Shown here: positions 6,045-58,285 of the stretch, piece by piece
Layout of the letters: each line of letters begins with the position of its first letter
Numbering within the stretch: position 1 is the stretch's first letter
Assembly: GCA_016186485.1 (NCBI GenBank)
Contig: JACPLN010000005.1
Location: 41,256-105,255 of the forward strand
Length of the DNA stretch: 64,000 bases
Direction: 5' to 3'
Source: Candidatus Nealsonbacteria bacterium
GTDB lineage: Bacteria > Patescibacteriota > Minisyncoccia > Minisyncoccales > UBA6532
Made by a program: the position numbers and the translations under genes
The notes under the pieces: generated by a model
The model's input: only the letters and a program-made list of their open reading frames with translations
Databases searched by the model: none
Told to the model about the DNA's origin: nothing

Positions 6045-6143
6045 TGACTACGAAGTATTTACCCCGCAAGCGTCATGTGTCATGTGTCAGGAACTCGGCC
6101 TTGAATTGTTTGCCTTGAGCTGGTTGAGAGGGTAGAACGATGC

Positions 6144-9917: not shown

Positions 9918-9938
9918 TAAAAAGAAAACTATTAATAT
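9911..9938 (+). promoter_or_regulatory. Sigma70-like promoter TTGACA-N16-TAATAT driving the candidate sRNA
   Basis: Consensus -35 at 9911-9916, -10 at 9933-9938; -35 overlaps the minus-strand -35. Confidence 0.5.
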
Positions 9939-9945
9939 TAAAGCC

Positions 9946-10054
9946 AGTGAAAGGATTTGGTCGAGACGTCATCAAGATGTCGTGACCGCTGAGAGAAGCA
10001 GACTCAAGGGGGCAGCAAAGGGTGTCGAATCCGCTTCGGCACCATTTTATTTTT
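9946..10054 (+). ncRNA. Candidate small structured RNA (~105 nt), class unknown
   Basis: No ORF; bounded by a consensus promoter and a GGTGTC...GGCACC hairpin plus TTTTATTTTT; internal hairpin GACGTC-ATCAA-GATGTC; weak SRP-RNA domain IV-like string GAAGCAG..CAAGG..GCAG that I could not fold convincingly. Confidence 0.35.
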
Positions 10055-10060
10055 ATAGAA

Positions 10061-10128
10061 AAGCTGAATTAATATAAAAGTTGAATTGACAGGAAAGTTG
10101 AATTAATAGGTAGATTGACTATTATAGT
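10061..10128 (+). repeat. 17-bp tandem repeat, 3 good plus 1 degenerate unit
   Basis: AAGCTGAATTAATATAA / AAGTTGAATTGACAGGA / AAGTTGAATTAATAGGT / AGATTGACTATTATAGT at 10061, 10078, 10095, 10112. Confidence 0.7.
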
Positions 10129-10192: not shown

Positions 10193-11038
10193 ATGATAAT
10201 CGTTGACACCCACGCTCATTTGCAGTTCAGGGCTTATGACAAAGACAGGAACGAAGTTATAAAAAGGTGCCTAGATAAAGGCGTCTGGACAATTAATGTT
10301 GGCACGAATTACGAAACCTCAAAGGCCGCGGTTGAGCTGGCTAGAAAATGCAAAGAAGGGATTTTCGCCAGCGTCGGCCTCCACCCAATTAATTTGGATA
10401 CGGGATTGGTGAAAATACGCGTTGATCCTAACGAAGATAGCCATCCCGAAAAATATTTTGATTATGAAAAATACAGAGAACTTGCAAAAAATCCCAAGGT
10501 GGTGGCAATAGGGGAAGTGGGGCTGGATTACTATTGGAAGCCTAAAACGAAAGGAAGGCTGGAAGAATTTAAAAAAATGCAAAAAGAGTTGCTGGCCTTG
10601 CAGCTTAAACTAGCAAAAGAGCTTGACCTCCCCGTTATTTTCCACTGCCGAGTAGCCCACAGCGATCTCTTAGAGATCTTAAACTCAAATCCCAAATCCC
10701 AAACCCCAAAATTAAGGGGCGTAATCCATTCTTTTACCGGGAGCTGGGATGATGCGCAAAGGTTTTTAGCTCTGGGGTTTTACCTTGGGTTTAACGGCAT
10801 AATCTTTAAAAAAATAGAAGGATTAGATTTTGAAATTAACATCAAAAATACTCCGTTAAACAGGATGCTTATTGAAACAGATTGCCCTTATTTAACCCCG
10901 TCTAAAGAGAGCGGCCGCAACGAGCCAATTTTTATAAAACACATTATCCAAAAAATTGCTGATACAAAGGGCGTTAGTTGTGAGGAGGTTGGGGAGATTA
11001 CGGCCAAAAACGCCCATAAACTTTTCGGGGTACAATAA
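10193..11038 (+). CDS. tatD: TatD-family metal-dependent hydrolase/DNase
   Basis: N-terminal DTHAHL motif, GEVGLDYY, IHSF, ETDCPYL motifs. Confidence 0.85.
   Translation: MIIVDTHAHLQFRAYDKDRNEVIKRCLDKGVWTINVGTNYETSKAAVELARKCKEGIFASVGLHPINLDTGLVKIRVDPNEDSHPEKYFDYEKYRELAKNPKVVAIGEVGLDYYWKPKTKGRLEEFKKMQKELLALQLKLAKELDLPVIFHCRVAHSDLLEILNSNPKSQTPKLRGVIHSFTGSWDDAQRFLALGFYLGFNGIIFKKIEGLDFEINIKNTPLNRMLIETDCPYLTPSKESGRNEPIFIKHIIQKIADTKGVSCEEVGEITAKNAHKLFGVQ
10681..10713 (+). repeat. In-frame heptamer-like micro-repeat (CTCAAAT CCCAAAT CCCAAAC CCCAAAA) in tatD
   Basis: Period-7 G-free string encoding NSNPKSQTPKL. Confidence 0.6.
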
Positions 11039-11887: not shown

Positions 11888-14359
11888 ATGAGATATAATC
11901 CTCAGCTAATTGAGAAAAAATGGCAAAGAATTTGGGAAAAGACCGGGATTTATAAAACCAAGGATAGGGTCAAGGGCAAAAAGAATTTTTTTTGCTTGGA
12001 TATGTTTCCTTATCCTTCAGGGCATGGATTGCACGTTGGGCATTTGCATGGCTATGTCGGCTCGGATGTCGTTTCTCGTTATTACAGGATGCGGGGGTTC
12101 AACGTTTTGCACCCAATGGGTTTTGACGCCTTCGGCCTGCCGGCGGAAAACGCAGCCATCAAATTCGGGATACACCCTAAAGTTTGGACGTATAAGAATA
12201 TAAAAGATATAACTAAACAGTTAAAATCATTGGGAGCAATGTATGATTGGAAAAGGCTGATAATAACTTCAGAGCCGGATTATTACAAATGGACCCAGTG
12301 GCTCTTTTTGCAGCTTTATAAATCAGGCTTGGCTTACAGGCAAAATGTGCCGGCAAACTGGTGCAAGAACTGCAAAACCATTTTGGCAAACGAGCAGGTT
12401 GTTGACGGCAAATGCGAAAGGTGCGATTCCCGGGTCTTTCAGAAAAATATTGAGCAGTGGATGTTTAAAATCACAAGTTACGGGGAAGATTTGTTATCGG
12501 GGCTGGGTAATTTGGATTGGCCGGAGAACACAAAAACAATGCAGAGAAATTGGATAGGGAGATCGGAAGGATGGGAAATAAGATTCAAAATTCAAAATTC
12601 AGATCTCAAAACCACATCTCAAAATTCAAAATTTATTGAAGTGTTTACAACGAGGGCAGATACATTGTTCGGGGCTACTTATTTGGTGTTATCTCCCGAG
12701 CATCCAATTATTAAAAATCTTAAGTCTCAAATCGCAAATTTAAAATTCGTAGAAGAATACATAGAGGAAACAAAGAAAAAGACAGAAAGAGAAAGAATTT
12801 CTGAAGCAAAAGAAAAGACAGGGGTTGAGCTTCAGGGAATTAAAGCGGTAAATCCCGCCAACGGCAGAGAAATTCCTGTTTTCGTTGCAGATTACGTGTT
12901 AGGCGGTTACGGAAAGGGCGCCATTATGGCGGTTCCGGCACACGATCAAAGAGACTCCGATTTTTCTAAGAGACATAACCTGCCAATCATTAAGGTAATA
13001 AAAGCTGGCAGAGAGCGGTTCTCTGCTGAAAGGGCTTATGAAGGAGAGGGAATTTTGGTTAATTCCGGAGAGTTTGACGGCATGGATTCTATTAAGGCGA
13101 GAGATAGAATCGGAAAATGGCTTTCAGAGAAAGGTTTGGCGAAAAAATCGGTCTATTACAAACTTAGAGATTGGACGATTTCCCGCCAGAGGTACTGGGG
13201 GGCTCCGATACCGATGATTTATTGTAAAAAGTGCGGCTGGCAAACGGTGCCAGAGGAAGATTTGCCGGTTTTGCTGCCTCCTTTAAAGGATTTTAAGCCG
13301 ACCGAAGACGGCAAATCTCCTTTGGCTAGAGTTAATAAGTTTGTTGAAACCGCTTGTCCTAAGTGCAGGGGAAGAGCCAAGAGGGAAACCGATACTATGG
13401 ACACTTTTGTTTGCTCTTCGTGGTATTATTTTAGGTTTACCGACCCAAAAAATAAAAAGCAATTTGCTTCAAAAGAAAAAATAAAGATTTGGCTGCCCGT
13501 TGACATCTATATCGGAGGAGCCGAGCATACCGTTGGCCATCTTTTGTACTCAAGATTCTTTACCAGATTCCTGAAAAATAAAAAATATTTGAGTTTTTCA
13601 GAGCCATTTTTGAGGCTTTCGCATCCCGGAATCATTTTAGGTCCGGATAACCAAAAAATGTCAAAATCAAAGGGAAACGTTATTACGCCGGAAAGCGTTA
13701 CTAAAAAGTACGGCATGGATACTTTAAGGGTTTACGAAATGTTTATGGGCCCGTTTGGAGATTCCATGCCTTGGTCAACAGAAGGAATAGAAGGCAGTTA
13801 TAGGTTTTTGAAGAAACTGCAGAGATTAAACTCAAAACTCAAGTCTCAAAATTCAAAACCACCCGCTTCGCCAAAGCTTCAGCGAGGCGAGCAATTCAAA
13901 AGTCAAAAATTAGAGAAATTATTACACCAGACAATAAAAAAAGTAAGCGATGATATTAAGAATTTTAGATTCAATACCGCTATCTCGGCTTTGATGATTT
14001 TGGTTAATGAATTGCAGAAAGAGAAACAGTTAACAGTTAACAATTATCAATTATTGCTTAAACTTTTGGCGCCTTTCGCTCCTCATCTGGCAGAAGAATT
14101 ATGGTTGCCTTACGGCAAGTCGGTCCATCTTCAGCCTTGGCCGAAATACGATCCAAAATTGGTCAGAGAAAAAGAAACCACCCTAGTTTTGCAGGTTAAT
14201 GGCAAGGTAAGAGACAAGATTGGGGTTGAAATTGGCATTTCTGAGGAAAAAGCTAAAAAGCTTGCAATTTCCAGCCAAAAAATTAGAAAATGGATAGAGG
14301 GGAAAAAGGTGATAAAAATAGTATTCGTACCGAATAAATTAATAAATATAGTAATTTAA
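11888..14359 (+). CDS. leuS: Leucyl-tRNA synthetase
   Basis: PYPSGHGLHVGH (HIGH), KMSKSKGN (KMSKS), editing-domain TTRADT motif; 823 aa. Confidence 0.95.
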   Translation: MRYNPQLIEKKWQRIWEKTGIYKTKDRVKGKKNFFCLDMFPYPSGHGLHVGHLHGYVGSDVVSRYYRMRGFNVLHPMGFDAFGLPAENAAIKFGIHPKVWTYKNIKDITKQLKSLGAMYDWKRLIITSEPDYYKWTQWLFLQLYKSGLAYRQNVPANWCKNCKTILANEQVVDGKCERCDSRVFQKNIEQWMFKITSYGEDLLSGLGNLDWPENTKTMQRNWIGRSEGWEIRFKIQNSDLKTTSQNSKFIEVFTTRADTLFGATYLVLSPEHPIIKNLKSQIANLKFVEEYIEETKKKTERERISEAKEKTGVELQGIKAVNPANGREIPVFVADYVLGGYGKGAIMAVPAHDQRDSDFSKRHNLPIIKVIKAGRERFSAERAYEGEGILVNSGEFDGMDSIKARDRIGKWLSEKGLAKKSVYYKLRDWTISRQRYWGAPIPMIYCKKCGWQTVPEEDLPVLLPPLKDFKPTEDGKSPLARVNKFVETACPKCRGRAKRETDTMDTFVCSSWYYFRFTDPKNKKQFASKEKIKIWLPVDIYIGGAEHTVGHLLYSRFFTRFLKNKKYLSFSEPFLRLSHPGIILGPDNQKMSKSKGNVITPESVTKKYGMDTLRVYEMFMGPFGDSMPWSTEGIEGSYRFLKKLQRLNSKLKSQNSKPPASPKLQRGEQFKSQKLEKLLHQTIKKVSDDIKNFRFNTAISALMILVNELQKEKQLTVNNYQLLLKLLAPFAPHLAEELWLPYGKSVHLQPWPKYDPKLVREKETTLVLQVNGKVRDKIGVEIGISEEKAKKLAISSQKIRKWIEGKKVIKIVFVPNKLINIVI
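12584..12633 (+). repeat. In-frame heptamer micro-repeat block 1 in leuS
   Basis: TTCAAAA/CTCAAAA units encoding KIQNSDLKTTSQNSKF. Confidence 0.7.
12713..12747 (+). repeat. In-frame heptamer micro-repeat block 2 in leuS
   Basis: AAAATCTTAAGTCTCAAATCGCAAATTTAAAATTC encoding KNLKSQIANLKF. Confidence 0.65.
13827..13910 (+). repeat. Composite in-frame insertion in leuS: heptamer repeats flanking a GC-rich palindrome
   Basis: Heptamer-like strings 13827-13859 and 13893-13910 flank GCTTCGCC...GGCGAGC (13864-13891); encodes LNSKLKSQNSKPPASPKLQRGEQFKSQKL. Confidence 0.65.
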
Positions 14360-26526: not shown

Positions 26527-28569
26527 TTATTTTTGCGGCAGACCGGGACTATCACAAGATTTACTGGAGCACTTTATTTTTTTGCTTCTAGTTTCAACCA
26601 ACAGAGAACCGCATTTTGAGCATTTTTCGCCGGTGGGTTTTTCCCACAGGGCAAAATCGCATTTCGGGAAGCGGTTGCAGCCATAGAAAAGTTTGCCTTT
26701 CTTGGTTCTTTTTTCAACAATTTCACCTTGCAGGCATTTCGGGCATTTTACCCCCAATTTATTCTGCGGCAAGGACTCCGTGTAGTTGCATTTTGGGAAA
26801 GTTGAGCAGGCGTAGAATTTGCCGAATTTACCAAGCCTTATAATAACTTCAGCTCCGCATTTCGGGCATTTTTTTCCAGTTTTTTCCTGGGCCATCTCTT
26901 TTTTTGAAACCTCTTTATATTTTTTCTCAAGATTTTCTGCGAAGGGACCGTAAAAGTCTTTTAAAACCCTTACCCATTCTTCTTTTCCTTCGGAAACGTT
27001 ATCAAGGTTTTCTTCCATCTTTGCGGTAAACTGAATATCAACAATTTTTGGGAAGTGCTCAACCAGAAGATCGTTTACCGCAAGACCAATTTCAGTAGGC
27101 TTGAACTTTTTATTTTCGTCTTTTTCTATATAGTTTCTTTCTTGGATGGTTGAAATAATCGGAGCATAAGTAGAAGGCCTGCCAATGCCATTTTGTTCAA
27201 GGGCCTTAATAAGAGTCGCTTCGGTGTATCTGGCCGGCGGTTGGGTAAAGTGCTGGGAAGGCGTTAATTTTACAAGATCTAATATTTCATTGGCTTTAAG
27301 GAACGGCAGTTCTGTTTCTTCAAATTTTATCGGATAAACTTTAAGAAAACCGTCAAACCTCAAAACAGAACCATTGGCTTGAAAGACATGGTTTTTGGCT
27401 TCAATTTCTATTTTGGTTGAATCAAATCCGGCCCGGCTCATTTGAGAGGCGATAAATCTCCGCCAGATTAGATCGTAGAGCTTGAGCTGAGTTTCGTTCA
27501 GCTTGCAAGAGGACGGAGTTTTATCCGGATAGCTTGGCCTTATTGCTTCGTGGGCTTCTTGGGCTCCCCTGGCTTTGGTTTTATATTTTCCAAAAAACCC
27601 CGGCCAATAATTGTTTCCGTAGTTTTCAATAATGAATTTTTTCGCGGCAGACAGCGATAGATCAGAAAGGTTAAGGGAGTCGGTTCGGTGGTAGGTGATA
27701 AGCCCTTTTTCATAAAGGTTTTGAGCGATGCTCATCGTCAATCTTGCCGGAAAGTGAAGCTTCTTCCAGGCTGCCTGCTGGAGGGTGCTTGTGGTAAACG
27801 GAGGAAAGGGATTCCTTTTTATTTCTTTTCTTTCAATGCCTATTATTTTGTATTCCGCTCCATCCAAGTCCTTTATTATATTTTCCGCCTCCTCTTTTGT
27901 TTTAATCCCTAGTTTAGGAATTAATTTCTCGTCTTTTCTAATTAAAGTTGCCTCAAACTCATCATTCTTGAGATTTGAGATTTGAGATTTGAGATTTGCG
28001 ATTATGCTCCAGTATTCTTGAGGTTTAAAGTTCTCTATTTCTCTTTCCTTTTCCACCACCAGCCTTACAGCTACCGATTGCACTCTGCCGGCAGACAAGT
28101 GTCTGGCAATCTTTTTCCACAGGAAAGGAGAAAGTTTGTATCCCACAATCCTGTCTAGGATTCTTCTCGCTTGCTGAGCATCAACCAGGTTTTGGTCTAT
28201 GCCGCGAGGGTTTTTTAAAGAATCTTTAATTGCCTGTTTGGTTATTTCATGGAATACGATTCTTTGGTAATTTTCCGGATTTAATATTTGCCATAAATGC
28301 CAGCTGATAGATTCTCCTTCGCGGTCTTCGTCGGTAGCGAAAATAAGAAGATCGGCTTTTTTCGCCTCTTTTTTAAGCGACTGGATAATTTTCTTTGATT
28401 TTGCAGGAATGACATATTTTGGTTCAAAGTTATTTTCAACCTCAACGCCTAATTTGTCTTTGGGCAAATCCCTAACATGGCCATAGGAAGACAAGACCTT
28501 GTATTTAGGCCCAAGAAATTTTCCAATAGTCTTTGATTTAGTTGGCGATTCAACTATTACTAAATTCAT
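26527..28569 (-). CDS. topA: DNA topoisomerase I
   Basis: TOPRIM start MNLVIVESPTK, active-site region ITYHRTDS, three C-terminal CxxC...CxxC zinc ribbons. Confidence 0.95.
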   Translation of the reverse strand: MNLVIVESPTKSKTIGKFLGPKYKVLSSYGHVRDLPKDKLGVEVENNFEPKYVIPAKSKKIIQSLKKEAKKADLLIFATDEDREGESISWHLWQILNPENYQRIVFHEITKQAIKDSLKNPRGIDQNLVDAQQARRILDRIVGYKLSPFLWKKIARHLSAGRVQSVAVRLVVEKEREIENFKPQEYWSIIANLKSQISNLKNDEFEATLIRKDEKLIPKLGIKTKEEAENIIKDLDGAEYKIIGIERKEIKRNPFPPFTTSTLQQAAWKKLHFPARLTMSIAQNLYEKGLITYHRTDSLNLSDLSLSAAKKFIIENYGNNYWPGFFGKYKTKARGAQEAHEAIRPSYPDKTPSSCKLNETQLKLYDLIWRRFIASQMSRAGFDSTKIEIEAKNHVFQANGSVLRFDGFLKVYPIKFEETELPFLKANEILDLVKLTPSQHFTQPPARYTEATLIKALEQNGIGRPSTYAPIISTIQERNYIEKDENKKFKPTEIGLAVNDLLVEHFPKIVDIQFTAKMEENLDNVSEGKEEWVRVLKDFYGPFAENLEKKYKEVSKKEMAQEKTGKKCPKCGAEVIIRLGKFGKFYACSTFPKCNYTESLPQNKLGVKCPKCLQGEIVEKRTKKGKLFYGCNRFPKCDFALWEKPTGEKCSKCGSLLVETRSKKIKCSSKSCDSPGLPQK
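27970..28004 (-). repeat. In-frame heptamer micro-repeat in topA: (AAATCTC)x4 perfect plus one degenerate unit on the sense strand
   Basis: GAGATTT x4 at 27970-27997 on the + strand; encodes ANLKSQISNLKN. Confidence 0.85.
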
Positions 28570-31422: not shown

Positions 31423-31909
31423 GCCCCTTTTTTATTTCAAGACAGGCGTTCTTAATGCTATCTTTAATAATATTCTGTTCTTCCTTGCTGAATTTTTCCA
31501 AGACCGGTTCTTTTTCTATTCCTATTCTGAAACGGACAAAATCTTTTGTCTTCAATTCGCCAATTATGGATTGCACGCCTTTGTGGCCGGCAGACCCCCG
31601 GCCTTTGGAAATTTTAATTTTTCCCAAAGGCAGATCTAGGTCGTCATGAACAACAAACAAGTTAGTAGTTGGTAGCGAGTAGTAAGTAGTTAGGGGTTTG
31701 ACCGTTTTTCCGGAGTTATTCATAAATGTTCGGGGCTTAGCAAGAATTATTTCTCCTTTCTTAGATACGTCAGCATTAAATTTTTTAGAAAACTTAAAAT
31801 CGGGAAACTCATTTTCCTTTGCAAATTGGTCTAAAACTTCAAATCCCAAGTTGTGTCTTGTTCCAAAAAACTCTTTGCCCGGATTTCCCAGGCCGACAAT
31901 TAAAATCAT
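31397..31909 (-). CDS. pth: Peptidyl-tRNA hydrolase
   Basis: MILIVGLGNPG...TRHNLGF, HDDLDLP, GHKG motifs. Confidence 0.9.
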   Translation of the reverse strand: MILIVGLGNPGKEFFGTRHNLGFEVLDQFAKENEFPDFKFSKKFNADVSKKGEIILAKPRTFMNNSGKTVKPLTTYYSLPTTNLFVVHDDLDLPLGKIKISKGRGSAGHKGVQSIIGELKTKDFVRFRIGIEKEPVLEKFSKEEQNIIKDSIKNACLEIKKGLTAFEFQA

Positions 31910-34139: not shown

Positions 34140-34314
34140 CCCCGTAGTGAAAATTTGACATTTCTTGACGAGTTATGAGAAAAACAAACTACGAGACATA
34201 TGGTTCATTATTATATTATTAATGAGTAATTGCAGCGAGTTTTAGCGAAATTAACTCGTTGTCAAACTTCTACTACTAGCGAAATTAACTCGTTGTCAAA
34301 CTTCTACTACGGGG
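34140..34314. mobile_element. MITE-like hairpin element, copy 2 (175 bp, with internal 34-bp tandem duplication)
   Basis: Ends near-identical to copy 1; flanked by TATG at 34136-34139 and 34315-34318; duplication units 34244-34277 and 34278-34311. Confidence 0.7.
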
Positions 34315-43748: not shown

Positions 43749-44699
43749 ATGAGATATTTTATTTTAGCCGTTTTAATTATTGGCATTTCCTTTTCCTATT
43801 TCTTTTTTGGTTCAGCTAAAAGGGCCGATAAAATAGTTTGGGGAGTTAATTTTTCCCAAAAACAAGCCGAAAATCTGGGGTTGGACTGGAAAGAGACGCT
43901 TTCTTTTTTATTGTCAGACCTCGGGGCGAGGAACTTTAAAATCGCAGTTTATTGGGATTTAATTGAACAAAAGGAAGGAGAATATCGTTTTGAAGATTTG
44001 GATTGGCAGATTCGGGAGTTGGGAAAATATGGAGCAAAAGCAATTTTGGTTGTTGGCAGGAAATCTCCCAGGTGGCCCGAATGCCACGAACCTAGTTGGG
44101 TTCGAAATCAAATCTCAAATCTCAAATCTCAAATATTACTAGAATACCTTAAAGAAGTTGTTAATAGATACAAAGATTCTGGAGCGGTTTGGGCATGGCA
44201 GGTGGAAAATGAACCATTCTTAAAATTTGGGCAGTGCCCTTGGCCGCCAAACGAAGAACTTTTGAAAGAAGAAGTCAGTCTAGTTAAATCTCTTGATAAT
44301 AGAAGACCGGTAATCGTTTCAGCAAGCGGAGAGTGGTCTTCTTGGTTCAAGGAAGCAAGAATCGGAGACATGGTCGGGATTACAATGTACAGAACCGCTT
44401 GGTTTGAAGATTATCAAAGACAGATAAAATATCCTTTCCCGCCAGTTTTTTACTGGTTGAAAGCCCAGTTGATAAAAACATTTTTTCAAAAAGATGTTTT
44501 GGTTATTGAATTGCAGGCAGAGCCGTGGAGGGAATCCATTGGCCTTAGAGAAATTCAAAAAAATATCGCCTTTGCCAAAAAAACCGGTTTTGACAGATTC
44601 TATTTTTGGGGAGCCGAATGGTGGTATTGGCTAAAGACAAAGAAAGGAGATCCGGGGATTTGGGAGGAGGCTAGAAATACGTTTAGAGAAAATATATAA
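43749..44699 (+). CDS. Membrane-anchored clan GH-A-like glycoside hydrolase (putative)
   Basis: N-terminal anchor; WQVENEP (NEP acid/base motif); (beta/alpha)8-like length. Confidence 0.45.
   Translation: MRYFILAVLIIGISFSYFFFGSAKRADKIVWGVNFSQKQAENLGLDWKETLSFLLSDLGARNFKIAVYWDLIEQKEGEYRFEDLDWQIRELGKYGAKAILVVGRKSPRWPECHEPSWVRNQISNLKSQILLEYLKEVVNRYKDSGAVWAWQVENEPFLKFGQCPWPPNEELLKEEVSLVKSLDNRRPVIVSASGEWSSWFKEARIGDMVGITMYRTAWFEDYQRQIKYPFPPVFYWLKAQLIKTFFQKDVLVIELQAEPWRESIGLREIQKNIAFAKKTGFDRFYFWGAEWWYWLKTKKGDPGIWEEARNTFRENI
44103..44137 (+). repeat. In-frame heptamer micro-repeat in GH gene: (AAATCTC)x3 perfect plus flanking degenerate units
   Basis: CGAAATC AAATCTC AAATCTC AAATCTC AAATATT; encodes RNQISNLKSQIL. 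Confidence 0.85.
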
Positions 44700-53205: not shown

Positions 53206-54285
53206 ATGCCAATAATTGCTTTAATTGCCTTTTTTAGTCTTATTGCGCTGGTTATTCTTCATGAGCTTGGCCATTTTTTATTAGCCAAGCGTTTTGGCGT
53301 TAAGGTAGAAGAATTTGGGATTGGATTGCCGCCAAGGATTTTTGGAAAAAAAGCAGGAGAAACCGTTTATTCTTTGAATCTTTTGCCGTTCGGCGCTTTT
53401 GTCAGGATGTTCGGCGAAGAGGAAGAAAAACAAGACCCAAGAAGTTTCAGCTCAAAACCCATTTGGCAAAGGGCCCTGATTGTTTTTGGCGGGGTGGCTG
53501 TTTTTTGGATAGCGGCTGCCGTATTATTTTCCGTTATCATATGGTCGGGCGCTCCAACGGCGGTTGATGACAGCATGGGCGGCGTTCAAAATACAGCGGT
53601 TCAGGTCGCAGACGTGGCAAACGGATCGCCGGCCCAAAAATCAGGCCTGAAGATCGGGGACAAGATAACAGAGCTTAAAATCAATGGTTCAATCCTCAAA
53701 ACCGATAAGGTAAAAGAGGTCCAAGAATTCATAGACGAGAACAAGGGGAAGGAAGTCGTTTTGCTTGTTGAGAGAGGGGGAGAAGATCTTTTTGAGGTGG
53801 CATTGGTTCCAAGGGTTTCGCCTCCCGGAGGCGAAGGAGCTATGGGAGTTGCTCTAATAAGAACCGCCGTTATTAAATATCCTTGGTACGAGGTTCCTTT
53901 AAGAGGTGTTTTCACCGCTGCAAATTTGACGCTGGGCATAATAATGGGCTGGGCAGCTGTTTTGGGGAACATTACCCAAGGGAAAGGCGTTGGAGCGCAA
54001 TTAATGGGACCAGTTGGAATATTAAATCTTTTCGGCCAGGTGGGGCAATTAGGATGGTTTTATTTCCTGAATTTAGTGGCAGTTATTTCTGTGTATCTTG
54101 CCATATTTAACGTTTTGCCGATTCCGGCCCTAGACGGCGGGAAGCTGTTATTTTTAGCATTTGAAAAAATAAAAGGAATGCCGCTTTCTCAAAAAACAGA
54201 GCAGAAAATAACTCAATTTTTCTTTATTCTTCTTGTTGCTTTGCTGGCTTTTGTAACCGTAAAAGACATCATAAGAATTTTATGA
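53206..54285 (+). CDS. rseP: RseP/site-2 (M50) intramembrane metalloprotease with PDZ domain
   Basis: HELGHF zinc motif, PDZ-like segment, NVLPIPALDGG. Confidence 0.9.
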   Translation: MPIIALIAFFSLIALVILHELGHFLLAKRFGVKVEEFGIGLPPRIFGKKAGETVYSLNLLPFGAFVRMFGEEEEKQDPRSFSSKPIWQRALIVFGGVAVFWIAAAVLFSVIIWSGAPTAVDDSMGGVQNTAVQVADVANGSPAQKSGLKIGDKITELKINGSILKTDKVKEVQEFIDENKGKEVVLLVERGGEDLFEVALVPRVSPPGGEGAMGVALIRTAVIKYPWYEVPLRGVFTAANLTLGIIMGWAAVLGNITQGKGVGAQLMGPVGILNLFGQVGQLGWFYFLNLVAVISVYLAIFNVLPIPALDGGKLLFLAFEKIKGMPLSQKTEQKITQFFFILLVALLAFVTVKDIIRIL

Positions 54286-55529
54286 AACAATCCCAGCTTT
54301 TGTTTAAAGCCCAAAGAGAGGCGCCAAAAGACGAAAAAAGCGTTAATGCTAAGCTTTTGGTCAGAGCCGCTTTTGTTGACAAGCTGATGGCGGGGGTTTA
54401 TTCATATCTGCCCCTGGGATTTTTGGTATTAAAGAAAATTGAAAATATTATAAGGGAGGAAATGGTTAAAGTCGGAGGACAAGAGCTTTTGCTTCCCGCT
54501 CTTCACCCCAAAGAAAATTGGGCGAAAACCGGCAGGTGGCAGACAGAAGAAATGTTTAAGCTAAAGAGCAGGGGCGGCAAAGACTATGGTTTGGGCTGGA
54601 CCCACGAGGAGATTATTACCCCCTTAGTTAAAAAGTTCGTAAGTTCCCATAAAGATCTGCCCCTTTTCGTGTTTCAGATTCAGAATAAGTTCAGAGACGA
54701 ATTGAGGGCAAAGTCAGGGATTTTGAGGGGCATAGAGTTTATAATGAAAGACCTTTATTCGTTTCACAAAGACGAAAAAGACCTAAGTGATTATTACGAA
54801 AAAGTTAAAAGCGCTTATTTTAAGATTTTCGCCAGGTGCGGACTAAAAAAGGAAACTTTTTTGACCCTGGCCGGAGGCGGCACTTTCAGCAAGTATTCGC
54901 ACGAATTTCAGGCAGTAACGCCTTATGGAGAAGACTTGATTTACCTTTGCAGAAATTGTTCTCTGGCCATAAACAAAGAGATAATTGAGGGAGAGGGAAA
55001 CGCTTGTTTTAAGTGTAAGAGCAAGAATTTAGAGCAAAAAAAGGCGATTGAACTGGGCAATATTTTTAAGCTGAACGATAGATTTTCTAAGGCCTTTGAT
55101 TTTTATTTTAAAGATGTAAAAGGCCAGAAAAAAATAGTTTTTATGGGTTGTTACGGAATTGGACTAGGAAGACTGATGGGGGCGATAGCAGAGATTAATA
55201 ACGACAAAAACGGGATTATTTGGCCAAAAGAAGTCGCCCCATTTTTGGTGCATTTAATACCCATAGAGGCAAGCAAAAAAGTTATAAAAGCGGCAGATAA
55301 TCTTTACGACGATTTACAAAATCAAGGGATAGAAGTATTATATGATGATAGATACGGAAAGGGCGCTGGCGAAAAATTAGTGGAAGCGGATTTATTGGGA
55401 ATACCGTACCGCATGGTAGTCAGCGAAAAGACTCTTAAACAAAATTCCATTGAGTTTAAAGAACGCGGTACAGAAAAAATGAGATTAATTAAAATCTCAA
55501 ATGTCAAAGTTCAAATGTCAAAGCTATGA
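54282..55529 (+). CDS. proS: Prolyl-tRNA synthetase, minimal form without INS editing domain
   Basis: Class II motifs (FRDELRAKSGILRGIEF, GCYGIG), anticodon-binding C-terminus; CxxC...CxxC module in place of INS; 415 aa. Confidence 0.85.
   Translation: MKQSQLLFKAQREAPKDEKSVNAKLLVRAAFVDKLMAGVYSYLPLGFLVLKKIENIIREEMVKVGGQELLLPALHPKENWAKTGRWQTEEMFKLKSRGGKDYGLGWTHEEIITPLVKKFVSSHKDLPLFVFQIQNKFRDELRAKSGILRGIEFIMKDLYSFHKDEKDLSDYYEKVKSAYFKIFARCGLKKETFLTLAGGGTFSKYSHEFQAVTPYGEDLIYLCRNCSLAINKEIIEGEGNACFKCKSKNLEQKKAIELGNIFKLNDRFSKAFDFYFKDVKGQKKIVFMGCYGIGLGRLMGAIAEINNDKNGIIWPKEVAPFLVHLIPIEASKKVIKAADNLYDDLQNQGIEVLYDDRYGKGAGEKLVEADLLGIPYRMVVSEKTLKQNSIEFKERGTEKMRLIKISNVKVQMSKL
55491..55524 (+). repeat. Heptamer-like micro-repeat forming the proS C-terminal tail
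   Basis: AAAATCTCAAATGTCAAAGTTCAAATGTCAAAGC encoding KISNVKVQMSK; runs into the ATGA overlap with mreB2. Confidence 0.65.
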
Positions 55530-56866: not shown

Positions 56867-58285
56867 ATGGAACTCACCGAGCTTACTATTGCAGAGGCTA
56901 ACAGGGGTTTGGTAAATAAGGAATTCTCGGCCCAGGATTTAGCTAAGGCTTTTTTAGATAAAATTGAAAAGGAAGACAAAGATATTTTTTCCTTTTTAAC
57001 GGTAACCAAAGATCAAGCTCTTTTAAAGGCCAAACAAGTTGATGAATTAATAAATGGGAAAAATGATATCCCGCTGTTGGCCGGGGTGCCCTTGGGCGTT
57101 AAAGATAATATTCTGGTAAGGGGCACAAGGTGTACTGCGGGATCTAAAATCCTAGAAAATTATATTTCTCCCTATGACGCCGCCGTTGCGAGAAAGATTA
57201 AAAAACAGGGAGCCGTAATTTTGGGAAAGACTAATATGGATGAGTTTGCAATGGGGGCTTCTGGCGAGAATTCTGCTTTCGGTCCGACAAAGAACCCCCG
57301 TGATTTAACCAAAGTGCCCGGGGGGTCTTCTTCCGGATCGGCCGCAGCCGTGGCTGCCGATATGGCAGTTTACGCCTTAGGCTCTGACACGGCAGGCTCA
57401 ATAAGACAGCCCGCTTCATTTTGCGGGATTGTCGGTCTAAAGCCGACATACGGAGCTGTTTCAAGATATGGATTGATAGCAATGGCTTCTTCTTTGGATC
57501 AGATTGGTCCAATAGCTAAGACTGTGGAAGATGCCAGAATTGTTTTTGAGGCGATCCAGGGAAAAGACCCAGCCGATTCAACTTCAGTTGAATCGGAAAT
57601 CCGAAATCAGCAATTCGCAATTCAAAAATTAAGAATAGGGCTCCCCAAGGAATATTTTATTAAGGGTACTGATAACGAAGTGGAGAAAATAGTAAGAGGG
57701 GCGATTAAAAAATACGAAGAAATGGGAGCAAAAATTGAGGAAGTCAGCCTGCCTCACACGGAGTATTCCGTAGCCGCCTATTATATTATTACTCCTTCTG
57801 AGATTTCGGCGAATTTGGCGAGGTACGATGGAATAAAATACGGCTACAGCGATAACGCGGTAAATGATTTAATGAAGGTATATTTGAATTCGCGAGGGAG
57901 GGGTTTTGGCGATGAAGTTAGACGGAGAATTATGCTTGGCACGTATGCGCTTTCTGCCGGTTATTACGACGCCTATTATTTGAGAGCTCAAAAAGTCAGG
58001 ACTCTTATCAGAGAAGACTTCACCAATGTTTTTAAAAAAGTTGATGTCCTAATGACCCCAGTTGCGCCCACACCCGCCTTTTTACTAGGGGAAAAGATTA
58101 AAGACCCCCTTTCAATGTATCTTTGCGATGTCTTTACCGCGCCGGTTAATTTAGCCGGTCTCCCCGCCCTTTCTTTGCCCGCAGGAAAGGCTGGGAATTT
58201 GCCAGTAGGACTTCAAATTATAGGAAAACCATTCGAGGAAGACATTATTTTAAAAGCAGGAGAACTATTAGAAAAAACTATTTAA
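56867..58285 (+). CDS. gatA: Glu/Asp-tRNA amidotransferase subunit A
   Basis: Amidase signature GGSSSGSAAAVA, KDNI, GSDTAGSIRQPA. Confidence 0.95.
   Translation: MELTELTIAEANRGLVNKEFSAQDLAKAFLDKIEKEDKDIFSFLTVTKDQALLKAKQVDELINGKNDIPLLAGVPLGVKDNILVRGTRCTAGSKILENYISPYDAAVARKIKKQGAVILGKTNMDEFAMGASGENSAFGPTKNPRDLTKVPGGSSSGSAAAVAADMAVYALGSDTAGSIRQPASFCGIVGLKPTYGAVSRYGLIAMASSLDQIGPIAKTVEDARIVFEAIQGKDPADSTSVESEIRNQQFAIQKLRIGLPKEYFIKGTDNEVEKIVRGAIKKYEEMGAKIEEVSLPHTEYSVAAYYIITPSEISANLARYDGIKYGYSDNAVNDLMKVYLNSRGRGFGDEVRRRIMLGTYALSAGYYDAYYLRAQKVRTLIREDFTNVFKKVDVLMTPVAPTPAFLLGEKIKDPLSMYLCDVFTAPVNLAGLPALSLPAGKAGNLPVGLQIIGKPFEEDIILKAGELLEKTI
57593..57630 (+). repeat. In-frame heptamer-like micro-repeat in gatA
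   Basis: TCGGAAATCCGAAATCAGCAATTCGCAATTCAAAAATT encoding SEIRNQQFAIQKL. Confidence 0.55.

Follow-up and report, generated by a model that had tools for sequence, protein, structure and literature searches.

Heptamer arrays lie in frame within housekeeping genes

The topA gene of a Candidatus Nealsonbacteria genome (Candidate Phyla Radiation, CPR/Patescibacteria) is located on the minus strand, at 26527-28569, of the 64-kb stretch of DNA analysed here and denoted the window. Within topA, the plus strand at 27970-28004 reads (GAGATTT)x4 followed by GCGATTA, which on the sense strand makes four perfect AAATCTC units and one imperfect unit. The array lies after a conserved EYW motif, at the tip of a variable hairpin, and encodes (I)ANLKSQISNLK. 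An initial annotation of the window had pointed to this array and to related strings in tatD, leuS, proS, gatA and a putative glycoside hydrolase (GH) gene. For topA, the sequence, Tandem Repeats Finder (TRF) and the translation all agree with it. The remaining strings also exist, in frame and in the sense orientation, with the qualification that leuS-4 is too short to count alone and that gatA and leuS-2 are imperfect. The arrays, together with three further period-7 arrays of the window, are as follows.

27970-28004, minus strand: topA array; sense TAATCGC(AAATCTC)x4, encoding IANLKSQISNLK; TRF period 7, 5.1 copies, 96% matches
44103-44137, plus strand: array in a GH42-like open reading frame (ORF); C GAAATCA (AATCTCA)x3 AATATTA, encoding RNQISNLKSQIL; includes a perfect (AAATCTC)x3
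10681-10713, plus strand: tatD array; AAACTC (AAATCCC)x2 AAACCCC AAAATT, encoding LNSNPKSQTPKL; called by TRF
12584-12633, plus strand: leuS-1 array; (AAAATTC)/(TCTCAAAA) units, over the hairpin that opens the editing domain; called by TRF
12713-12747, plus strand: leuS-2 array, degenerate; AAAAATCTT AAGTCTC AAATCGC AAATTTA, encoding IKNLKSQIANLKF
13827-13859, plus strand: leuS-3 array; TAAACTC AAAACTC AAGTCTC AAAATTC AAAAC, in a variable linker; called by TRF
13893-13910, plus strand: leuS-4 string; about two AAAAGTC-like units
55491-55524, plus strand: C-terminal array of proS, in its last 11 codons; AAAATCTC AAATGTC AAAGTTC AAATGTC AAAGC; called by TRF
57593-57630, plus strand: imperfect gatA array; GGAAATC CGAAATC AGCAATTC GCAATTC
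14022-14055, plus strand: extra leuS array, (AACAGTT)x3, outside the AAATCTC family; called by TRF
31660-31698, minus strand: extra pth array, ACTAACT-like, in the sense orientation; called by TRF
6066-6093, no strand assigned: extra intergenic array, (GTCATGT)x3; called by TRF and the array scan

The period-7 calls of TRF start at 10686, 12583, 13828, 14025, 27968, 31660, 44108 and 55492. The leuS-4 string taken alone is indistinguishable from chance and was missed by both TRF and the array scan. Of the seven arrays in the window that pass the stringent definition given below, six are within coding sequence. The array in proS ends 2 nt 5' of the start codon of mreB, with which the TGA of proS overlaps (ATGA), and nothing like a Shine-Dalgarno sequence is seen at this junction (55491-55529). 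It is the only array in the window adjacent to a start codon, a placement that resembles that of TAACTGA repeats upstream of starts (PMC4679880).

The gene content of the window is that of ordinary housekeeping (RecG, GlmS, RelA/SpoT, Mfd, a Lon-like protease, ComEC, MreB, tRNAs), and about 93% of it is coding, which is why the arrays are found within genes and not between them. Genome GC is 41% and the sense strands are A-rich. The TopA, GH and LeuRS proteins match, without a difference, entries of a single 181-kb contig of a Candidatus Nealsonbacteria genome assembled from a metagenome. The identities of topA, tatD, leuS, proS, gatA and pth are backed by NCBIfam, and the GH ORF (43749-44699) has only a weak Pfam match to GH42. 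Besides housekeeping, the host genes have no common functional theme.

Period-7 arrays exceed chance expectation

A search of the window for AAATCTCAAATCTC with up to two mismatches gave 13 matches against 1.98 expected, and none of 100 shuffles reached 13. Arrays were defined by at least three units and at least 85% self-match. By this definition the window contains seven period-7 arrays, compared with 0.56 expected from a second-order Markov model (at most 4 in any of 100 simulations), and Markov simulations of the window showed no enrichment at the other periods from 4 to 15. We also shuffled codons within each gene, thereby keeping amino-acid and codon content; this null gave 1.19 arrays (sd 0.44, maximum 3 in 200) against the seven observed, with no enrichment at the in-frame periods 6 and 9. 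The codon-shuffle outcome removes AT-rich low-complexity loops as an explanation and places the periodicity in the DNA itself. The period-7 DNA repeat family that the initial annotation had noticed is real, always in the A-rich sense orientation and placed in poorly conserved parts of housekeeping proteins.

As an unbiased background for repeat period we used unrelated loci (1.05 Mb) selected as metagenome matches for topA, mostly distant homologs with 45-68% identity. Among the matches listed, these contain 42 period-7 arrays versus 4.7 expected, which reproduces the published general excess of heptamers.

Orthologous arrays keep their length while their units change in concert

The array in the GH ORF has counterparts in three relatives, at equal position, in equal register and with equal length (35 nt), built from different units. 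The topA loop likewise carries different units in different relatives.

GH site, window: GAAATCA (AATCTCA)x3 AATATTA
GH site, relative L206: AATCTCA AAAATCA AATCTCA AATCTCA AAATTTA
GH site, relative L207: (AAATTCA)x4 AAATTTA
GH site, relative L208: (AAAATCA)x4 AAAATTA
topA loop: (AAATCTC)x4 in the window, about five AAAATCA units in L201, (AAGATWA)x5 in L202

Units are more alike within an array than orthologous units are between species, 0.91 versus 0.78 at the GH site and 0.88 versus 0.68 at topA. Protein alignments show KIKNQKS, KFKIQNS, KSKVKSQ and KSQISNL variants at the GH site of orthologs, FKIQNSKFKI-type hairpins at leuS-1, and the peptide ISNLKSQISNLK at the leuS-2 site of two orthologs (P0296 and P0302); TsaD and POR genes of relatives carry multiple arrays each. 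Position, register and length are shared by relatives whose proteins are only 55-70% identical. The arrays are thus orthologous and old, and the idea that they are spreading does not agree with this.

Changes of length are rare and come in steps of seven residues. At the GH site, two orthologs lack exactly 7 aa relative to the 17- and 18-aa forms, and the length of the topA loop peaks at 15/22, 18/25 and 19/26 aa. Within clusters of TopA at 90% identity this loop is the sole site of internal indels, and one cluster holds forms of 690 and 683 aa. Steps of 7 aa (21 nt) are seen both among orthologs and within the 90% clusters; none of the relatives found belongs to the species of the window genome. 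Such quanta fit a repeat that, in an essential gene, is limited to length steps of three units. We found no earlier description of orthologous arrays that hold their length, turn over their units in concert and change size by 21-nt quanta.

Two Nealsonbacteria loci, L204 and L205, share about 99.9% identity along 14 kb and differ in a 104-nt patch over the topA hairpin, including a 21-nt length difference; the loop of this lineage is a 21-nt duplication, not a clean heptamer array. The patch (L204 6254-6357, L205 about 10570-10650) differs completely and spans both strands and the loop of the hairpin; recombination over a short tract, or local diversification of this surface hairpin, may account for it. 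An NTP-transferase gene holds a second patch, 92 nt long, in which all differences are substitutions. Targeted mutagenesis of the topA hairpin of the kind made by diversity-generating retroelements was considered and appears unlikely, since the substitutions in the 104-nt patch are not adenine-specific and include indels. No reverse transcriptase (RT) domain is among the precomputed Pfam hits of the topA-flanking genes in relatives, a result that does not extend to the window, where no RT or template-repeat search was made.

Arrays occupy weakly conserved segments, mostly without net insertion

We compared the length of each array-bearing segment with homologs in the PDB and with CPR orthologs. 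Three segments are longer by 3 aa or more: the topA loop by 5 aa relative to S. mutans TopA (its length varies among 120 orthologs), leuS-1 by 8 aa relative to T. thermophilus LeuRS, where most orthologs read FKIQNSKFKI, and tatD by 3 aa relative to the T. maritima and YcfH TatD structures. Elsewhere in leuS the gain over the T. thermophilus enzyme is 1 aa at leuS-2, whose segment measures 19 aa in 78 of 82 orthologs, and about 1 aa at leuS-3 and leuS-4, the leuS-3 linker being highly variable among orthologs. At the extra leuS array (14022-14055) the orthologs are equal in length. In gatA the segment falls 4 aa short of its counterpart in the GatA structures of Aquifex and P. aeruginosa, and in proS an 11-aa tail replaces the longer C-terminus of E. 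faecalis ProRS. The GH site shows no gap against the 100 of 120 orthologs that have the same 17-aa W..Y segment.

The AlphaFold2 (AF2) model of the GH protein (predicted local distance difference test score, pLDDT, 91) puts array residues 119-130 at the end of a short helix and in the N-terminal part of helix 123-141. For topA the AF2 model (26 close orthologs) had a pLDDT of 46.6 and was of no use for placing the loop, so the loop was placed by alignment to TopA sequences of the PDB.

The initial annotation had described the strings as inserted. This stands for topA, leuS-1 and tatD, to the extent that these proteins are longer, and fails for GH, gatA, proS and leuS-2 to leuS-4, which show no net insertion. 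It had also named, as the outcome that would speak against insertion, distant orthologs with homologous residues at the same positions, and at most sites this is what the alignments gave. Because most sites have no net length gain over homologs, the arrays are not added cassettes; they lie over poorly conserved hairpin tips, ends of helices, linkers and termini, whose sequence they have overwritten.

Orientation probably follows from stop codons and peptide character

GAGATTT presents TGA in all three frames within 21 nt, while AAATCTC presents no stop, as the initial annotation had correctly worked out. Antisense copies of AAATCTC, AAAATTC, AAAACTC, AAATGTC and AAAAATC always contain TGA; the antisense tatD unit, GGGATTT, is stop-free. 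That stops alone explain the orientation is a further claim that our data do not support. The 59 coding arrays found in 300 kb of CPR DNA have a sense-strand composition of 50% A, 25% T, 16% C and 8% G, and among the 20 coding arrays with a stop-free antisense, 18 are still A-rich on the sense strand. Their antisense peptides would abound in F, L, W and I.

Selection can be seen directly at the level of single units, as in-frame stops are edited. The (GAAATTA)n array in the POR gene of L201 contains TAG three times out of frame, and the one unit in frame has TGG instead; in the topA array of L202 the in-frame unit has TTA instead of TAA. The orientation bias is best explained as survivorship from stops and hydrophobicity, with selection presumably its sole cause, and an orientation-specific insertion mechanism is then not needed. 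The same argument on orientation and stop codons has been published for TAACTGA repeats (PMC4679880).

The repeat unit is shared by many phyla

The exact (AAATCTC)x3 21-mer is present in at least 120 stretches of a 596-Gb species-representative collection, compared with about 0.3 expected by chance (our own estimate). Many of the listed matches are Microcoleus and other Oscillatoriales (Cyanobacteria); also among the matches listed are Planctomycetota (Kuenenia, Pirellulaceae), Bacteroidota, Verrucomicrobiota and Acidobacteriota and, within the CPR, Saccharibacteria, Levyibacteriota, Tagabacteria and the Patescibacteria group. In one CPR locus (L058) the exact (AAATCTC)x3 is in LeuRS, precisely at the leuS-2 site of the window. 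A separate, topA-selected locus (L125) carries an AAATCTC array in TsaD, and another CPR genome (L015) carries the unit in a glycosyltransferase-like ORF. The 21-mer also occurs in 33 viral contigs, versus 5, 5 and 15 for AAATTCC, AAACTTC and ACACATT, which are composition-matched stop-free permutations; the sister units AAAATTC and AAAAATC are found in 64 and 72 viral contigs.

Close CPR relatives contain AAATCTC as well as sister units, and the repeat is thus not genome-specific, as the initial annotation had taken it to be. The window favours AAATCTC-like units without a clean genome-level unit overall. Homogenisation of one genome-specific unit across loci was considered and rejected, since the TsaD gene of L201 alone contains AAAAATC, GAAATCC, GAAATTA and AAATACC.

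Location differs between the CPR and other phyla. Among the matches listed, non-CPR (AAATCTC)n arrays are mostly outside long ORFs, whereas all five in the CPR are in the middle of long open frames; across the CPR loci, 59 of 80 heptamer arrays are in open frames of at least 100 aa.

Two observations concern arrays between genes. Among the matches listed outside the CPR, (AAATCTC)n arrays within 60 nt 5' of a gene start number 21 in the orientation of the gene and 7 in the antisense, by crude ATG-only ORF calls, and by the same calls arrays 3' of stop codons show no orientation bias (16 versus 14). In the relative L206, the intergenic region 2741-2937 has heptamer arrays in opposite orientations, (CCAATAT)n and then (AATTGGN)n and (AAAACTC)-type units on the other strand, which could pair into a long imperfect hairpin.

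Origin of the arrays

We consider it probable that these arrays are tandem heptanucleotide simple-sequence repeats (SSRs), kept uniform by DNA-level homogenisation in a 7-nt register and sifted by selection. A DNA-level process acting in this register would make adjacent 7-mers alike, the candidates being replication slippage and, inside the array, template switching or gene conversion out of register; the molecular mechanism would be slippage or out-of-register conversion within an array. Selection would then retain only what the host gene tolerates. Preservation of the frame would let only 21-nt (7-aa) length steps or length-neutral conversions persist, arrays with an in-frame stop would be lost, hydrophilic or amphipathic K/S/Q/N/I/L peptides would be preferred, so that the A-rich strand must be sense, and the surviving arrays would be confined to hairpin tips, ends of helices, linkers and termini that are under weak constraint. 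Orthologous arrays would then persist for long at constant length while their units change together.

Several points weigh against this explanation. One-unit slippage shifts the frame and is lethal in essential genes, so it cannot operate simply, and arrays of four to five units are too short for easy three-unit slips. Instability of the arrays in the present day is presumed. As stand-alone repeats leuS-4, gatA and leuS-2 are weak. Finally, AAATCTC recurs in unrelated genes and phyla, and in viral contigs exceeds its permutations 2-7 fold, a preference not obviously predicted by neutral slippage plus filters. With one-unit slips lethal and three-unit slips hard, length-neutral conversion by template switching and realignment becomes an attractive candidate. 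We regard it as possible, tentatively, that a length-neutral mutational process in 7-nt register writes heptamer periodicity into weakly constrained DNA and may favour units like AAATCTC. Polymerase or repair synthesis could mis-pair one 7-nt step off, copy a few bases and realign; out-of-register conversion inside the array could do the same. If so, the constant-length concerted arrays in essential CPR genes would be the clearest footprint of a length-neutral 7-nt process and a way to approach an old problem, the preference of prokaryotic tandem repeats for period 7.

An unlikely alternative to homogenised SSRs is a mobile or templated micro-element, by which pre-formed (AAATCTC)n cassettes would be inserted at new sites through transposition, retro-insertion or ectopic recombination, spread within genomes and from one to another, and survive only in frame and in sense. 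The identical unit in topA and GH, in the TsaD and glycosyltransferase-like genes of other CPR loci and across phyla would fit such cassettes, as would the frequency of AAATCTC above composition-matched controls, and an in-frame presence/absence element of about 45 nt does exist between L204 and L205. Most array sites, however, have no net insertion; the orthologous arrays of relatives keep register and length but differ in units, and the units form a continuous cloud rather than one element. For no array was a filled/empty pair found, all relatives examined having arrays at the same site. Array edges abut conserved codons, and no terminal inverted repeat or target-site duplication is evident on reading the sites, no repeat-finding tool having been run on the flanks. 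A miniature inverted-repeat transposable element or other small dispersed repeat was rejected on similar grounds: by the same reading, again without a repeat-finding tool, there is no flank signature, and the relatives examined show no filled/empty polymorphism. Function at the nucleic-acid level, in which G-poor unstructured A/C/U-rich tracts act in mRNA or DNA through protein binding or translation modulation, a role proposed for TAACTGA repeats 5' of start codons, appears quite improbable. It would account for the sense excess of arrays close to gene starts in other phyla, with no bias downstream, for the proS array that stops just short of mreB, and for array length and position kept over deep divergence. 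That 21-to-7 count, however, comes from the crude ORF calls described above. The in-gene unit differs by lineage (AATCTCA, AAATTCA and AAAATCA at GH; AAAATCA and AAGATWA at topA), which argues against a sequence-specific site, and the host genes share no theme beyond housekeeping. The arrays have no Rfam match, and shuffled sequences fold as well as they do. 

A protein-level or compositional artefact, in which K/N/S/Q/I loops of low complexity in an AT-rich genome, or heptad peptides under selection, mimic heptamers, is very improbable and is largely refuted by the Markov and codon-shuffle nulls and by the GH arrays of relatives. In KSQISNL, I and L do stand at a/d-like spacing, the GH array is partly in a helix, FKIQNSKFKI at leuS-1 fits a strand-turn-strand motif, and the A-rich sense strands of this 41% GC genome point the same way. 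Codon-shuffled genes nevertheless fall far short of the observed seven arrays, and the in-frame periods 6 and 9 are not enriched. A 7-aa peptide repeat needs only 21-nt periodicity, leaving 7-nt periodicity without a protein-level rationale, and in other phyla AAATCTC heptamers are mostly intergenic.

The presence/absence element mentioned above is unrelated to the heptamer arrays. It is about 44-48 nt long, contains CCGAGCG(W)TAGCGAAGG(K)GGAA and varies in presence between the two near-identical Nealsonbacteria strains (2044, 13240 and 17034 of L204; 6318, 17537 and 20990 of L205). One copy is intergenic, and two or three lie inside CofD-like and POR genes without breaking the frame (45 and 48 nt). 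The element has the look of another family of mini-elements in CPR housekeeping genes, this one truly insertional, and it is absent from the window.

Other features of the window

The ProRS encoded at 54282-55529 has 415 aa, and bacterial ProRS models match it in two separated stretches, so that the insertion (editing) domain in its centre is missing. At 34243-34310, between genes, 34 nt are perfectly duplicated in tandem (TAGCGAAATTAACTCGTTGTCAAACTTCTACTAC x2), just 5' of a small, very basic ORF that starts at about 34318 and by its sequence may be ribosomal protein S21. Between tRNA-Arg and tatD, a 17-nt repeat, ATAGAAAAGTTGAATTA, is present in 3.2 copies at 10055-10109, where no Rfam family matched; the intergenic region 9930-10050 was considered as signal recognition particle RNA, for which Rfam gave no support.

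Relation to known heptamer repeats

Arrays in essential genes are a natural experiment: the constraints of frame, stops and folding bar one-unit slippage, and units still homogenise. The mechanism must therefore act without length change or in exact 21-nt steps, a requirement that narrows the candidates. Many seemingly CPR-specific low-complexity loops (KSQISNL, KIKNQKS, KFKIQNS) are products of DNA repeats and not conserved motifs or insertions, which bears on annotation and alignment. The initial annotation described the repeats rightly; its reading of them as a genome-specific, inserted, spreading element of no known class largely does not hold.

Phase-variable SSRs at contingency loci resemble the arrays in having, inside an ORF, a unit that is not a multiple of three, such that a one-unit slip shifts the frame. 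They differ in that the hosts here are essential housekeeping genes and the arrays are short (3-5 units). A phase-variable contingency locus was rejected, as the orthologs and cluster members examined are intact, differing by 0 or 7 aa, with no frameshifted alleles. For the short tandemly repeated repetitive (STRR) sequences of cyanobacteria, a class to which PMC4692102 also refers, Mazel et al. in 1990 reportedly described the units CCCCAGT, TTGGTCA and CAACAGT. By these units, the arrays are not cyanobacterial STRR: they are built from AAATCTC, AAAATTC and AAATCCC, in a metagenome-assembled genome of Nealsonbacteria. STRR and the GGGGAYT/GGGAATC repeats of Nostoc and Xanthomonas (PMC4692102) do share heptamer tandem arrays with family-like variation of the unit, and (AAATCTC)n is frequent in Microcoleus/Oscillatoriales. 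Those repeats have other units, or are G-rich and G-quadruplex-forming, and are intergenic, whereas the arrays here are G-poor and unstructured.

TAACTGA repeats are known from Beggiatoaceae, Cyanobacteria and Bacteroidetes (MacGregor 2015, PMC4679880). They too are a specific heptamer with a patchy distribution across phyla, of which one orientation stops all frames and the other occurs in ORFs at the periphery of proteins, and their heptad was noted as leucine-zipper-like (PMC4679880). Unlike the arrays here, they have another unit, are mostly just 5' of start codons and rarely coding, are common in the stop-bearing orientation, and have no reported orthologous in-gene arrays. The TRF rows and array scans of the window contain no array of the TAACTGA unit, for which no dedicated pattern search was made.

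The closest relation is with prokaryotic heptanucleotide SSRs in general. Heptamers are reported to be the most abundant class of tandem repeat in prokaryotic intergenic DNA, with no known function (PMC6344855, the SPADE survey; PMC4692102), and their excess was reported by Mrazek et al. 2007, as cited in PMC4692102. With tandem heptamer repeats so described (PMC6344855, PMC4692102) and the TAACTGA argument in print (PMC4679880), the statement that no described class fits no longer applies; a literature search on SSRs in the CPR in particular found nothing. Like these SSRs, the arrays comprise at least three 7-nt units head to tail in short arrays, show an excess specific to period 7, extend over wide taxa and have no agreed function or mechanism. 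The described repeats are mainly intergenic, whereas 59 of 80 CPR arrays are in frame in conserved genes, and here orthologous arrays keep their length while their units co-evolve. The arrays thus belong to the known but unexplained heptamer repeats, in an unusual setting, in frame within essential genes of the CPR.

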